In this document: one piece after another, positions 21,901 through 27,900 of the stretch | Layout of the letters: each line of letters starts with the position of its first letter | How positions within the stretch are numbered: position 1 is the first letter of the stretch | Source: a virus | Taxonomy: Duplodnaviria; Heunggongvirae; Uroviricota; Caudoviricetes | IMG/VR virus record: IMGVR_UViG_2695420914_000005 | Strand: one strand, 5' to 3' | DNA length: 64,000 nt | Position numbers: made by a program

Positions 21901-24900
21901 GGAACTCACCCGAGCCAATGACTCCAACCTTTTGGCCCTTTAACCACGGTTCGCCATTTTCGGCGCGGTAGTCGATGGATCTCTGGAAGTTTTCGGCCAT
22001 TTGAAACATCAGAACAGAGCGGGTTGTTAAAAATAATGTCATTCGACCGATACGTGCAGCTGCTTTGCAGGCAACGTTAGATTTCCCGCCACCAGTAGCG
22101 ATCTGCGCAATCATCATTCCCTCTCGAACCAGTGTTTCCACAGTCTGATCCTGATACGCATAATCAGGATTGTATGGGAATGGGTTAACCGCCGGATTTG
22201 GTTTACCAAGCGCCGGGGCTTTGTCTTTGCGGATATGAACACATTTGATGCCCGCCTTGTTCAAGTTCGCCGCTACAGGCTTGGCAAAGCCAGCAGGGAA
22301 CGAGTTTTTACTCCAGTTGAACATCGTGCTTGTGCCCTTCCAGTCGCCAGTCTCGACTTCGTAGCTCAACATTTGCTGCACCAGTTGCTTTACCTTGTCA
22401 TCTGCGCCAGAAATAAGCGCATTTACTGCGTTAGATACAATCCGAACAGTCATAAACCTCTTTCCTTAGTGCCTTTTGTATGTTATTTGGCTATTATAAT
22501 AAGTAAGTGATTACTTAGTGGATTGTAGCAATAAAATGGATGTAAAAATCACGATTTTGCAGGTTGATGTTGCCAACCTTCGCCCGAATACCTGGAACAC
22601 CAATTCGGTTGGTGCGCAGAATTTTGAAAAACTGAAAGGTTCTATCGAAAAATTGGGCTTTTTTAAGCCAATTTTGGCTCGTGAACTTGAAGATGGATTT
22701 TTTGAAATCCTCGGCGGTGAACATCGCTGGCGTGCTGCTATTGAGCAAGGAATTTCAACGGTTCCGGTGCTTTCTGTGGGCAAAATTAGCGATGTCGTAG
22801 CTAAACAGATGTCACTGGTGGACAACGAGCGATACGGTGAAGACGACCAAATCGCATTGCAACGCTTCATTGAAGAAATTCAGTCAGAACTTGACTATCA
22901 ACTGTCTGAAATCGCTCCGTATGACGACGAAATCTCGATGGTTTTAGCAAAAGAGGCGGCAATCGACCTTGAAGCACTGGAGGCGTTGTCTCGTGGTAGT
23001 GATGAGCCTGTCGATACCGACAAACGAGAGAAAACCGAACGTGTGGGTGCGGAACATCAGACCATGCGCTTCAAAGTAACTTTCGATGCGTCAGATCGTG
23101 TTGCAGAAACCATAAAAAACATCATCAAAGAGCAGGCTATTAACACCGGTAATGAAATGGAGAACGCTGGTGAGGCTCTGGTGTGGCTGGTCGACTACTA
23201 CAAGGAGCGTATGTAATGACCAAAAAGTTTGAAATCGTATATCGCGACCCGGCAGATCTTATTCCCTATGAGATGAATGCCAAAAAGCATGATGAACAGC
23301 AGATCAGAGATCTGGCCGCAGCCATTAAAAAGCGTGGATTTGACCAGCCAATTACGGTCGATAAGAACGACGTAATTATTACTGGCCACGGCCGCCGTGA
23401 GGCTGCAATTTTTGCTGGACTTGAGCGCGTACCGGTTATTGTTCGTGATGATCTGAGTGATGACGAGGTACGTGCAAAGCGCCTTGAAGATAACCGACTT
23501 GCCAGCATTGATTACGATGCAATTAAGCTACAGAAAGAGCTTGAGTCGCTTGTTCTGGACGATATCGAGGTTTTCGGCTTCGAAGAGCGTGAGTTGAATG
23601 TTCTCGTTGGCAGTATGACAGAAGAAATGGACACCGACTCGCTAGTTATCGATCTTGGCGAAGAAACTAAACGACAGAAGGATGAACACACCGAGATCAG
23701 TCGTGAAGTTGCAGCGGAAGAAGTACGTGTTGTCGACGTATTGGGCTTTAAAACGCTTCCTGCTGGCTCTGCCATTGTTGTTGGTGATTTGCTTGCCCAC
23801 ATGGAAGAAATGACGGGAGAAAGCGGGGTAGACGCATTTGTGGCATATGCGGAGAAGATCTCTTCCGGGGAGATGGCTGCATGAGCAAATACATCATCAA
23901 CGTATCGTTTCAGACACGCGTAAATAAAACCACGCGCACGTTGGAAATCGCTGAGTCGTTCGGGCTTGGCCTAGACGAAAAAGAGTGGACGCTTTACGAC
24001 AATCTGGAGCTGGAAGTGAAGCAGGGCGATGTGGTGTACATCACCGGCCAATCCGGTTCCGGCAAATCCGTTGTGCTGCGCGAGTTGCAACGACAGATGA
24101 AGGATGAAGGGCTGTCTGTAGCCTCCATCGATGATTTTACCTTCGATAATGAGGTTAACGTCATCGATCAGTTGGGCAAAACGACCAGTGATGCGCTTGG
24201 GTTGTTATCTATGGCTGGTCTGAACGATGCATATCTGTTTGTTCGCAAGCCTTCTGAAATGTCAGACGGCCAGAAATATCGTCTCAAGATTGCCAAACTG
24301 ATTGAGTCAGGCGCTAAAGTATGGGCTGCTGACGAGTTCGGCGCTGTTCTAGACCGTGTAACCGCTCAGGTTGTGGCGTCTAACCTCCAGCGTGCCGCTC
24401 GAAAGGTTGGTGCGACGGTAATGGTGGCGACGACTCACGAAGACCTGAAGAACGCGCTGCGCCCGGATATGCAGATCACCAAGCACTACAAAGAACGCGT
24501 GAAGGTGGAATATGCCTGATTTGAAGATCGTAGAGCTGAAGCCATCGAAAGAGACTGATAACAACAACGTGGAAGTCATCCGCCTGCTGGAAGAAGCACT
24601 TCAGCACGCCAGAGAAGGAAAAAGCCAGAGCCTGGCGCTGTTGATGATCAACAACGACGGCAGTGTTCTTGATTGCTGGCATAACGGCGGGCGCCCGTAT
24701 GTCATGGTAGGGGCGATGGAGTCTCTTCGCCTGGATTTCATCAATGCCAATATCGAGCGCAGGTGATCGACATGGCAGATATCATCATCAAACGCTACCG
24801 CCCTGAAGAGTTTCCGCGTCATCTGGACTTTCTGGAGCGAATGACTGTCACAAAGGGAACTGTAGAGGACTGGCACGCTCTTAAGTCGCTTCACTACAAA

Positions 24901-27900
24901 ACAGACGGCAAACCTTTCGCGCCAACATACTATCGCTGCGAACTGGATGACCGTCTGGTGGGCGTCGTGGTTATGGCTTACCCGAAACTTCTGCTGGCAC
25001 CTCGCCATCGCATGTTTCCTAAGTTGAAACCAACCACCAATACCACCGTGGCTAACCAGTACTGGGGCCGGTACGTGAATAACAACTTTGCGGTGATCAG
25101 CCGCTCAGTTGTGGATACTCAGTACCGTGGCGTAGGCGTCTCTTATCGAATGATTAACCTGGTTAGCAGGATGCATGACCGGCCAATCATTGAGATCCAG
25201 TCATCGATGAGCAAATACAATCCCTTCGCCATGAAAGCAGGGTTTAAGTTCATCCGCCCTGAGCGACCGAAGAGCTATGAAAGTGCACTGCGTGTGTTCC
25301 AGCGCCATTTCCGCTCCGACCCGGGTGATAACGAGGCGATCGTCAAAGAGTTGTTCGCTATGAGCGAGTCTCGTCGTCGCCGTGCACTGCGTGATCTGGT
25401 GGCGGACTACCACAAGAACAGTTCCCTGGCAAAAGCTGGGCGGAATCGTGGCACGACGATTCAGGACATTGCCGACAGTCTGGTGGACGAGGCCAGCATT
25501 GTGAAGCTGCTCAAGGATATTCACAACCTGAGCTTTACGTCTCCGTTGTATGGTGTGTATCGAAACCCTGACTTTGGTCGTCGACTGCCTGACACGCTGC
25601 CACTGCTGGCATTCGACAAACAACCTTTGGATAAACCGTTAGAAATTGCTTTACCGGCATAAGGATTTGCCATGACGTTAACCGATAAACAAAAGGACAT
25701 CATCAAAACGCTCAATCTCGGTTATGAGCGAGGTCATCTACTTGACCTGGACGAATTGCTTGAAGTTTTGCCGTACAAGACAACCAAGCAAAGTATCCAG
25801 TTCTCAATTCGCGCTCTGATAAAAAAAGGGCTGGTGGAGAAAGGGCATACGCGCCAACGCAGTGACAATCGCTATCACCGCCGAACTCTTGGGTTAACCA
25901 CTTTAGGTCGAGCCAAAGCGAAGTTACTGGTGATGTAATCGGTCTGGGAGCTTATTTAAAGACCTGCTTCTGTATATATAAATAATAAGTAACTTATTAA
26001 ATATATACGGAAGCAGGCTTCGTAAGACATGCCAGACCTAATTAAACACCCCAGAAAACAAGTTGGTTAGCAGATGCAGTAAACAAGTTGTTTTAGAGCG
26101 CATGGACGCGCTCTGTGTGTTTTAGAGGGATCTATGACGGTCGAAAAAGACGAGGTAAAAACTCGCCTGACACCAGCGGAGTGGGCCGAAGCTGAAGCCA
26201 AATGGACGTCAGGCGAATATACACTCTCAAAGCTGGAGGAAGAGTACGGCATTCGTCGTGAAACACTCTCCAGACATTTCAAAAAGCGAGGATTAGAGAA
26301 AGGCGCGGACTCTGTTGGGAAGATGGTTCGTGAGTCTCTTAAATCTGACGCAGAGCTTCGCGCTAAAGCCCGTGCGGAAAAGATAGAAGAACGTCGTACA
26401 CGTTATGACGGCTGGGCGTATGCGTTGGGGCAGATGGTGATGGTCGAAGTCACTACGGCCAAACGTGAGGGTAAGCCTTTAGGGGCGATTGAGGATTCTC
26501 TCAAGAGCTTACAGAGAGCCAGTAATACCCTTGCAAAATGCTTTGAAGTTTCGTCCAAAGCATTGGGCATGGATCATGCGGAAAATGACGAGGAAGAAAT
26601 TCCGAACCTGGTATTTGGTGAGCTTACGCCTTCCCAGGTGGCGAAATTACGTCAGGAAGACGACGAGCCTGAAATCATCGATGACGAATTGCTTGAGACG
26701 TTGGAAGAAGAAGCTCTAAGCGAATTTGATGCGACAGATGATGGAAGTGAAGGGGAGGACGAATAATGGCAATCCCGTCCTCGCTCAGTCTTGTGCAACT
26801 GCATTCTGGACAGATGAAAGTCTTCCAGTCTCCGCATCGATTTAAAGTTGTTTGTGCTGGTCGACGCTGGGGAAAATCCCGGTTGTCGATCTCCACTATT
26901 ATTCGTGCGGCGGCAAAGGAAAAAAAGCAAAGGGTCTGGTATGTCGCTCCTACTTACCAGATGGCTCGCCAGATTTTGTGGGACGATCTACAGGAAGTTC
27001 TGCCTCGTAAGTGGGTTAGGAAAAAGAACGACACCACGATGACAATCGTGTTGAAGAACGGTTCGGAGATCGCCCTCAAAGGTGCTGATAAGCCTGACAC
27101 TCTGCGCGGCGTAGCGTTGCATTTTGTAGTGCTTGATGAATTTCAGGATATGAAGGCTGACACCTGGTACAAGGTGTTACGACCTACTCTTTCATCGACA
27201 CGCGGCGGTGCACTGATCATTGGTACGCCAAAAGGCTTCTCGGAATTTCACAAACTGTGGACGATAGGCCAGAACGTAGAGCTGCAAAGAAAGGGACAGT
27301 GGAAGAGCTGGCAGTTTGTAACTGCCGATTCTCCGTTTGTACCTACGGCGGAAATTGAAGCTGCTAAGAACGATATGGACCCCAAATCGTTCGCTCAGGA
27401 GTACCTGGCCAGCTTTGAGAACATGTCCGGGCGCGTTTACTACCCGTTCGATCGTAACGTGCATGTAAAACCGCTTCAGTTCAACCCTCGGTTGCCTATA
27501 TGGGTAGGGCAGGACTTCAACATTGACCCGATGTCTTCAGTAATTTTGCAACCTCAGCCAAATGGTGAGCTATGGGCAATTGATGAATTGGTGCTCTTTT
27601 CCTCTAACACGGCAGAAGTTTGTGATGAGCTTGAGAGACGCTTCTGGCGCTGGAAATCACAGGTAACGGTATTTCCAGATCCGGCAGGTGCTTATCGCCA
27701 ACATGCTCGTGGGGAGTCTGACGTAGACATATTCAAAGAGAAGGGATTCTTACGTGTCGATTATTCGAAAAAGCACCCGCCAATTGCGGATCGTGTTAAT
27801 GCTGTTAACCGAATGCTGATGTCCGCATCTGGAGATATCCGGCTGTATATCGATCCGAAGTGCAAGCATTTGATTGATTCACTGGAAAAAGTCATCTACA

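Follow-up and report, generated by a model that had tools for sequence, protein, structure and literature searches.

In phage Mu, adenine N6 of the DNA is modified late in infection by Mom, a GNAT-fold enzyme, and N4-acetylcytidine in RNA is made by TmcA/NAT10, an ATP-dependent GNAT. For a system that pairs a GNAT protein with an ABC-type ATPase (COG2401/MK0520), acylation of DNA bases has been predicted (Iyer, Zhang, Burroughs & Aravind 2013 NAR, to the extent that it is summarized by Iyer et al. 2021, PMC7824862). Additionally, a ParB protein without a classical DNA-binding domain is required for the 5mYOX thymine dioxygenase to act on duplex DNA (PMC13229309), and DpdB, a ParB-fold protein, supplies the ATPase activity with which DpdA carries out base exchange (PMC12839542). 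Here we describe a module in a 64,000-nucleotide (nt) stretch of a tailed virus (Caudoviricetes; IMG/VR record IMGVR_UViG_2695420914_000005), hereafter referred to as the window. Genes for two ParB-like proteins (ParB1 and ParB2), a stand-alone ABC ATPase, a GNAT protein of 296 or 299 amino acids (aa), and a small basic protein of 88 aa lie there upstream of the terminase genes (Table 1). The module is a split, ParB-coupled member of a family known to date from computational work only. Our favored reading, to which we assign a probability of roughly 0.45, is that it carries out ParB-assisted, ATP-dependent acylation of replicated phage DNA by the GNAT protein before packaging, protecting this DNA against restriction.

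Both domains of the COG2401 fusion proteins are homologous to genes of the window, and the setting is viral and DNA-centered. In the window, however, the domains are separate genes, often with an inserted open reading frame (ORF) between them, and two ParB paralogs upstream and a winged-helix gene downstream are added. Mom works without ABC ATPase or ParB partners, whereas the GNAT protein of the window is accompanied by both. No Mom family was found among the Pfam or PHROG matches of the block proteins, the likeness lies at the level of the fold only, and membership in the Mom family was not supported at the sequence level. The ParB proteins of the window resemble the partner of 5mYOX in having no matched helix-turn-helix (HTH) and in lying in an enzyme operon, but there are two paralogs of them, and their partner is a GNAT-ABC ATPase rather than a dioxygenase or, as for DpdA, a transglycosylase. 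TmcA/NAT10 shares with the module an ATPase coupled to a GNAT that acts on a nucleic-acid base, yet its ATPase is helicase-type while that of the window is ABC-type, and the context of the window is DNA replication and packaging. Membership in the TmcA/NAT10 family likewise was not supported at the sequence level, as Pfam reported no TmcA-type helicase ATPase, GNAT_acetyltr_2, or tRNA-binding domain for any block protein. Canonical ParABS systems have in common with the module the ParB_N domain of the CTPase fold and its GxxRxxA motif; in contrast to them, the ParB proteins of the window have no adjacent ParA and no match to an HTH or dimerization domain, and they are silent in the plasmid state.

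Relationship of the ABC ATPase and GNAT genes to a fused protein family

The ABC ATPase matched the Pfam family ABC_tran (E 5e-13) and carries, in order, Walker A (GQSGSGKS, residues 56-63), the signature (MSDGQ, 127-131), Walker B (VWAADE, 147-152), and the H-loop histidine (His186), in keeping with the complete motif set that had been read from this ORF in a first-pass annotation of the window. Neither a permease nor a substrate-binding gene was found in the block or in any relative, although no transmembrane prediction was run. The database name 'ABC transporter' was rejected because no permease gene is present and because homologs of the ATPase are joined to a GNAT domain.

The neighboring protein has the GNAT fold, with a GNAT domain at approximately residues 25-165 followed by a conserved helical C-terminal domain, and it is basic (isoelectric point, pI, 9.8). 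Its motif A, the coenzyme A (CoA) pyrophosphate loop, reads R122-G-V-G125-V-S, and R122 and G125 are invariant in 33 sequences; the corresponding motif in the fused family is R-G-I-G-L-G. On the basis of this motif and fold, acyl-CoA-dependent transferase activity is predicted. When the sequence of the 299-aa protein was searched against Pfam, NCBIfam, PADLOC, and the PDB, nothing meaningful was returned, and matches to AlkD (E ~1) were dismissed as chance. On the homologs P0211, L187, L211, and L219, the Pfam model Acetyltransf_10 scored 19.8-23.3 bits (cut-off 23.6). The best match among viral structure models was the Mom protein of a Salmonella phage, followed by several proteins of ~550 aa named 'endonuclease-like'; fusions of Mom to a nuclease are described for jumbo phages in PMC7824862.

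Our profile search with the GNAT protein revealed 972 relatives among 1.84 billion representatives, many of them 450-500 aa long and matched in their C-terminal half. Fused proteins were reached by the GNAT-half profile at E 1e-28 and weaker, down to ~1e-15 among the matches listed. ABC_tran was located immediately N-terminal of the GNAT part in all 10 of the long distant homologs scanned, and each of the 60 representatives with a length of 400 aa or more contained a homolog of the window ABC ATPase. When the window ABC ATPase was aligned with the fusion-family alignment A2 (hhalign), the match had a probability of 100 and an E value of 2e-71, with 45% identity over columns 7-215 of 472. The fused proteins thus consist of an orthologous ABC part followed by an orthologous GNAT part with its C-terminal domain, in the same order as the two genes, and this homology identifies the genes of the window as the split halves of the widespread ABC-GNAT family (COG2401/MK0520), which in most of its other carriers consists of one polypeptide. 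The name 'ABC-type ATPase fused to a predicted acetyltransferase domain' is already carried by the orthologs in Escherichia phage Cyrano and in Klebsiella phages.

The ParB genes are linked to this pair by further fusions. Three archaeal genome loci (L187, L211, and L219) encode ParB-ABC-GNAT triple fusions as single ORFs of 638-647 aa, and three more representative clusters (P0213, P0245, and P0222) likewise have an N-terminal ParB domain. The N-terminal ~200 residues of one archaeal triple fusion aligned with ParB1 over 181 aa at 28% identity (E 1e-12), including the GEHR motif, and more weakly with ParB2. The domain order of the triple fusions is the gene order of the window and is the strongest available evidence for joint action of the ParB, ATPase, and GNAT components. 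Together with the ABC-GNAT fusion in 60/60 long homologs, it bears out the earlier grouping of these genes into one unit. A database search with ParB1 itself returned only near-identical Klebsiella and Escherichia coli proteins, which carry no architecture information. In a separate ABC-GNAT homolog of 847 aa (P0167), an intein with a LAGLIDADG domain lies inside the ABC ATPase domain.

Source element and distribution of the module

The 3.6 kb around the module is 100% identical in many E. coli plasmids of ~110 kb, 98-99% identical in the Escherichia phages CMS-2020a, Cyrano, and PhiR41_1, 86% identical in Salmonella phage SSU5, and ~81% identical in Klebsiella phage-plasmids. Positions 2400-46000 of the window are colinear with plasmid pERB3f3 at 99.998% identity. 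Because of this near-identity to pERB3f3, Cyrano, and the SSU5 relatives, the window is assigned to an SSU5-type phage-plasmid, a type that is very common in clinical Enterobacteriaceae. The block was present in 783 plasmid records (Klebsiella, 307; Escherichia, 227; Enterobacter, 92; Yersinia, 62; Salmonella, 49; the rest from others).

The block order is conserved at ~40% protein identity in Pseudomonas phage nickie, Rhizobium phage RHEph10, Stenotrophomonas phage BUCTxx99, and Xanthomonas phage JGB6, all with genomes of 105-120 kb. The common order is a divergent superfamily 2 (SF2) helicase, followed on the other side by ParB, ParB, ABC, GNAT, the small basic protein, a small-terminase-like gene (TerS-like), the large terminase gene (TerL), and the portal gene. 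Among 80 close viral contigs, ParB1 was present in 77, ParB2 in 78, the ABC ATPase in 80, the GNAT gene in 80, and the 88-aa gene in 79. The block appears to be a core, lytic-cycle function common to phages of other Pseudomonadota, and its ABC-GNAT core also occurs, as a fusion, in archaeal viruses. In the JGB6 record (L248, OQ436456), each of the helicase, ParB, ABC, terminase, and capsid genes is broken into fragments, which looks like frameshift sequencing errors and not biology.

The two ParB-like proteins and the partition question

ParB1 and ParB2 both matched the Pfam family ParB_N (PF02195) above its gathering cut-off of 26.3 bits, at E 3e-13 (49.9 bits) and E 1e-8 (35.2 bits), respectively. 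The box II motif GxxRxxA occurs as GEHRWRA at residue 61 of ParB1 and as GHGRREA at residue 57 of ParB2, and both align opposite GERRYRA of Spo0J (1vz0; GEHRWRAA of ParB1 against GERRYRAA). These results support the earlier assignment of two consecutive ParB-domain proteins, which had been made from the motifs GGEHRWRAA and GHGRREAA. By domain and motif, the two proteins are members of the ParB/Srx superfamily, and NTP binding is predicted for them. They are paralogs (33% identity over 116 aa), and both are acidic, with a pI of 4.55 and a net charge of -15 in the C-terminal half for ParB1 and a pI of 4.53 and a net charge of -19 in this half for ParB2. ParB1 belongs to phrog_723 (E 2e-79). ParB2 matched phrog_930 (E 1e-112) and also phrog_498, a ParB-methyltransferase family (E 2e-31), and the PADLOC model MTase_II matched ParB2 at E 3e-17 through the ParB part of the model. 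Judged by these matches, ParB2 is most closely related to ParB domains that occur in fusion with DNA methyltransferases of phages.

Database names such as 'ParB/RepB/Spo0J family partition protein', together with the ParB_N domains, would make the module a plasmid partition or maintenance locus with ParB centromere-binding proteins. Published RNA-seq of the Cyrano lysogen LF82 (supplementary table of PMC9928086) does not fit this explanation. The module genes CYRAN_119-123 had values of 5.0, 9.5, 9.2, 8.0, and 7.8, the first two being those of the ParB genes, against a prophage median of 9.8, and the terminase genes TerS and TerL had 7.1 and 8.4. The ParA/MinD-like gene CYRAN_99, in contrast, reached 92, ~9-fold over background, and a LexA-like gene reached 148. 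Like the late genes, the module thus stays silent in the plasmid state. On the other side of the divergent region 22454-22535, the neighboring SF2 helicase (46) and the 92-aa phrog_1466 gene (114) are expressed, so that this region drives very different outputs on its two sides. The full-length ParB/RepB/Spo0J model TIGR00180 (N-domain plus HTH) gave 43.3 and 43.1 bits for the two ParB proteins, below its cut-off of 58.45. No parA lies beside them, their neighbors being the helicase, ABC ATPase, and GNAT genes, and a separate ParA-type locus, which the first-pass annotation had already pointed out, is situated 33 kb away (Table 1). The silence in the lysogen, the conservation of the ParB pair beside the terminase in Pseudomonas, Rhizobium, Stenotrophomonas, and Xanthomonas phages, and the acidic character of ParB proteins with neither a ParA nor a matched HTH argue that the module is not the partition locus, as had been suspected, and we regard the chance of a partition function as practically negligible. 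The database labels 'partition protein' and 'ABC transporter' for module genes are both misleading.

Genomic neighborhoods of the fused gene in other viruses

A viral-contig scan with the GNAT alignment returned close relatives only, and the fusion alignment was used for a second scan. The largest group of the fused gene comprises tailed proviruses of Bathyarchaeia and matching IMG/VR contigs, in which it directly follows TerL. TerL was present in 50/80 archaeal genome loci with the fused gene; in ~40 of these 80 loci, it ends between -96 and +70 nt from the fused-gene start on the same strand, and it is the immediate upstream gene in 32/72 viral loci. Of 72 viral contigs, 40 ended no more than 1.5 kb downstream of the fused gene, and none ended within 500 nt upstream; because of this clustering of contig ends, we take the fused gene to be a terminal gene of those elements.

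This adjacency bears on the main rival explanation, an accessory role in packaging or morphogenesis without modification of DNA bases. In it, the ATPase-GNAT machine and the ParB proteins would help the terminase, or would acetylate a protein of the virion, of packaging, or of replication, or else a polyamine counter-ion. Within the SSU5/nickie/RHEph10 lineage, every phage has the module directly beside TerS/TerL, terminase adjacency occurs in two unrelated lineages, the lysogen expression of the module equals the background level of the terminase and portal genes, and the GNAT fold does not reveal the substrate. To our knowledge, however, GNATs and transporter-type ABC ATPases are not part of any packaging system, the documented cases of ParB partners concern enzymes that modify DNA, and other lineages place the fused gene in replication or nucleotide blocks far from the terminase, even fused to PolB. 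The first-pass annotation had named conserved packaging accessory proteins of known role as the finding that would overturn its view; conservation beside the terminase was indeed observed, but a known role was not. We consider a packaging function unlikely.

The replication neighborhoods are varied. The fused gene lies between PCNA, RFC-like, and ribonucleotide reductase (RNR) genes and Mre11-like and PolB genes in L155, and between primase/RecJ genes and the gene for Pol III alpha in L089; it adjoins an amidoligase in L088. In a 96-kb viral contig (L154:6938-9549), it shares 4 nt with the start of a gene for a 358-aa adenylosuccinate-synthetase-like (PurA/PurZ-like) protein, whose size and family are those of PurZ in phages with 2-aminoadenine genomes, and this arrangement suggests that the fused protein may cooperate with a second pathway for DNA bases. 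PolB-ABC-GNAT proteins, in which a family-B DNA polymerase is joined to the ABC-GNAT unit, are encoded by single ORFs of 1260-1310 aa (L090:4448-8380 and L128:4580-8362; also P0178 and P0189) that adjoin PrimPol, RecA, and SbcC-like genes. The existence of both ParB-ABC-GNAT and PolB-ABC-GNAT fusions therefore presents the module as one machine linked to DNA. In L155 (3880-6888), the RNR gene adjoining the fused gene contains a LAGLIDADG-containing insertion.

The PolB fusion, the PurZ-like gene, and the RNR adjacency would also fit an action on the precursor pool. Another rival explanation is that the module modifies RNA or nucleotides, through TmcA/NAT10-like acetylation of tRNA or RNA cytidine or through acylation of free (deoxy)nucleotides before their incorporation. 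The combination of an ATPase with a GNAT is the TmcA/NAT10 architecture, and tRNA genes lie ~2 kb upstream of the module in phage nickie. ParB folds, moreover, bind CTP, ATP, or GTP (PMC12704722). Against this, no block protein has a Pfam TmcA-type domain, there are no tRNA genes in the window, and terminase adjacency together with ParB partners fits polymer DNA better, which leaves this explanation distinctly improbable.

A variable slot, a winged-helix gene, and a palindrome

Comparison of the loci L001-L086 revealed a hot spot for inserted ORFs where the ABC gene meets the GNAT gene: this junction is occupied by the 84-aa ORF in 39, is empty (4-nt overlap) in 21, and holds a 183-aa ORF in 23, whereas the other module junctions are nearly constant. 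The slot corresponds to L002:5462-6013 and L005:5405-5707. The 84-aa ORF (phrog_796) had no Pfam match and, by comparative sequence evidence, is an insert in a variable slot outside the core module. In RHEph10, the slot gene is a Tad2-like Thoeris anti-defense gene (PF11195, E 5e-23). Because the slot is variable and a Tad2-like gene occupies it in RHEph10, the 84-aa and 183-aa ORFs are candidate anti-defense genes, and the same gene gives the RHEph10 module an anti-defense setting.

The slot could point to counter-defense by the module itself through another route, in which the GNAT protein inactivates a host immune protein or signaling molecule by acetylation, or in which nucleotides are destroyed or DNA is nicked by the ParB/Srx NTPases; the module would then be an anti-defense island and would not mark DNA. 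The anti-Thoeris gene inside the RHEph10 module and the variation of the slot among enterobacterial elements agree with this possibility. ParB/Srx proteins that have both NTPase and nuclease activity act in plasmid conflicts, according to work cited in PMC10853773, and phages are known to have GNATs that modify host proteins (Rac; PMC7824862). The core genes, on the other hand, keep ~40% identity and an invariant order from Enterobacteria to Rhizobium, and ABC-GNAT reaches archaeal viruses, which would be unusual for host-specific anti-defense. The PolB and ParB fusions point to DNA, and no system-specific PADLOC model matched; the only PADLOC matches were to a generic P-loop and to the ParB domain of a methyltransferase. 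Counter-defense of this kind is therefore judged improbable.

The 88-aa gene following the GNAT gene belongs to phrog_900 (E 2e-45) and gave weak matches to winged HTH (wHTH) models. Its start lies 2-12 nt after the GNAT gene, a spacing that is constant in 82 loci, and its product is strongly basic (pI 10.2). A single-sequence AlphaFold2 model of the protein has an H-H-H-beta-wing-beta topology, and the top Foldseek matches of this model were all winged-helix DNA binders, at E values of at least 0.14, so that none was significant. The gene is part of the conserved block, an addition to the first-pass description, and the modeled fold suggests that the 88-aa protein is probably a DNA-binding member of the operon.

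Between this gene and the TerS-like gene lies a palindrome (CCTGCTTC-TGTATATATAAATAATAAGT/ACTTATTAAATATATAC-GGAAGCAGG; Table 1), which is retained in elements of the E. coli, Salmonella, and Klebsiella types while its flanks vary. The database records of SSU5 and Cyrano are linearized inside it, at ~25999/26000, although the two records may not be independent. The palindrome may be a putative terminus, a pac site, an operator or other regulatory site, or a loading site for the ParB or winged-helix proteins.

Predicted acylation of replicated phage DNA

Regarding substrate, chemistry, lytic timing, and biological purpose, we infer the following for the favored reading of DNA acylation. ParB1, ParB2, the ABC ATPase, the GNAT protein, and probably the 88-aa winged-helix protein would form one lytic-cycle machine acting on phage DNA. 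A dimer of the ABC ATPase would use ATP to engage or open the DNA, and the basic GNAT subunit would move an acyl group from acyl-CoA to the exocyclic amine of a base, in a post-replicative reaction resembling that of Mom. The acidic ParB/Srx paralogs would serve as NTP-dependent activating or targeting partners and not as partition proteins. Expression together with the late and packaging genes would allow the DNA to be marked shortly before encapsidation, and the mark could shield virion DNA from host restriction.

A DNA-modification function is supported by the PolB and ParB fusions, the replication and terminase neighborhoods, the Mom-like fold, the invariant motif A, the basic character of the GNAT and winged-helix proteins, the methyltransferase kin of ParB2, the precedents of ParB-fold partners for 5mYOX and DpdA, the silence that the module shares with TerS and TerL in the lysogen, and the Tad2-like gene in the RHEph10 slot. 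The earlier proposal that a combination of ParB and ABC ATPase points to DNA modification or to defense and anti-defense agrees with the prediction for GNAT + ABC ATPase pairs as summarized in PMC7824862.

Several observations weigh against DNA acylation. Our literature searches found no experiment on any family member, the function of COG2401 being predicted only, and no report of modified DNA in SSU5-, nickie-, or RHEph10-like phages or in ANB28. No reader or nuclease partner for a mark is present, and we infer the late lytic expression of the module from its silence in the lysogen. ParB1 and ParB2, both acidic, matched no HTH model and have no recognizable DNA-binding domain. TerL, the commonest neighbor of the fused form, fits a packaging role equally well, and the archaeal locus counts are not independent because they come largely from one provirus lineage. 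In 80 viral loci with the fused gene, a hidden Markov model of ParB detected none in the surrounding 7 kb; coupling to ParB, though frequent, is therefore not obligatory. The restriction-resistant DNA reported for DLP3 belongs to a different lineage with a different gene set and was not used.

A more specific version of DNA acylation, which we put forward as possible though doubtful, is that the mark is an undescribed N-acyl base (e.g., N4-acetyl-cytosine or an N6-/N2-acyl purine), set by the ABC-ATPase-driven GNAT, which a heterodimeric, NTP-gated ParB clamp would load or activate, possibly at the palindrome, and only on virion-destined DNA. If this were true, hypermodification of phage DNA would gain a new chemical class, occurring in hundreds of phage-plasmids from clinical E. 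coli, Klebsiella, Salmonella, and Yersinia and, via the fusion protein, in archaeal viruses. Acylation of the DNA in any form would provide the long-missing experimental example of a modification system predicted since 2013, extend the emerging theme of ParB-fold proteins as cofactors of DNA-modifying enzymes, and help to explain how restriction barriers between hosts are crossed by these elements. Inducible members exist (Cyrano in E. coli LF82 and SSU5 in Salmonella), so the question is directly testable.

Gene layout of the module and its flanks

The elements of the module that had been listed in the first-pass annotation were all recovered in place by ORF, Pfam, and motif checks; the ORF starts in Table 1 follow the RefSeq annotation of pERB3f3. 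Successive genes overlap at their start and stop codons by 1, 4, 8, and 4 nt, or have a 5-nt gap at the last of these junctions, consistent with the translational coupling suggested earlier. In all phage relatives, synteny with the module extends to the SF2 helicase, which was not found beside the fused ABC-GNAT homologs.

Table 1. Positions (nt) of the module genes and flanking features in the window
Feature	Position	Strand	Basis
92-aa gene, divergent from the module	20613-20891	-	phrog_1466
SF2 (DEAD/ResIII, UvsW-like) helicase	20894-22453	-	Pfam
ParB1, 226 aa	22536-23216	+	Pfam ParB_N; phrog_723
ParB2, 222 aa	23216-23884	+	Pfam ParB_N; phrog_930
Soluble single-domain ABC ATPase, 212 aa	23881-24519	+	ABC_tran
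84-aa ORF, variable slot, non-core	24512-24766	+	phrog_796
GNAT-fold acyltransferase-like protein, 296/299 aa	24772 (or GTG 24763)-25662	+	Fold, motif A
Basic winged-helix-like protein, 88 aa	25672-25938	+	phrog_900
AT-rich palindrome, GC-rich ends	25963-26017		Inverted repeats I1 and I3
TerS-like gene	26134-26766	+	phrog_867
TerL	26766-28022	+	Terminase_6N/6C
ParA/MipZ-type ATPase	56832-57500 (ParA-type locus to 57859)		

A scan for promoters and terminators gave 7 promoter-like sites against 8.7 expected from shuffled sequence, and since this is no better than chance sequence, no transcript map was drawn. A terminator-like, GC-rich hairpin followed by a T-run is located at 26094-26115, 19 nt upstream of the start codon of the TerS-like gene. 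Of the two versions of this intergenic region, the one of 195 nt conserves the hairpin and the one of 127 nt lacks it. Elsewhere in the window, the annotation of pERB3f3 places a divergent pair consisting of a host-like apbC/mrp gene of the MinD/ParA family (~8134-9234, minus strand) and a full metG gene for methionyl-tRNA synthetase (9392-11425, plus strand), and the apbC-like gene was expressed in the Cyrano lysogen at ~9-fold over the prophage background.

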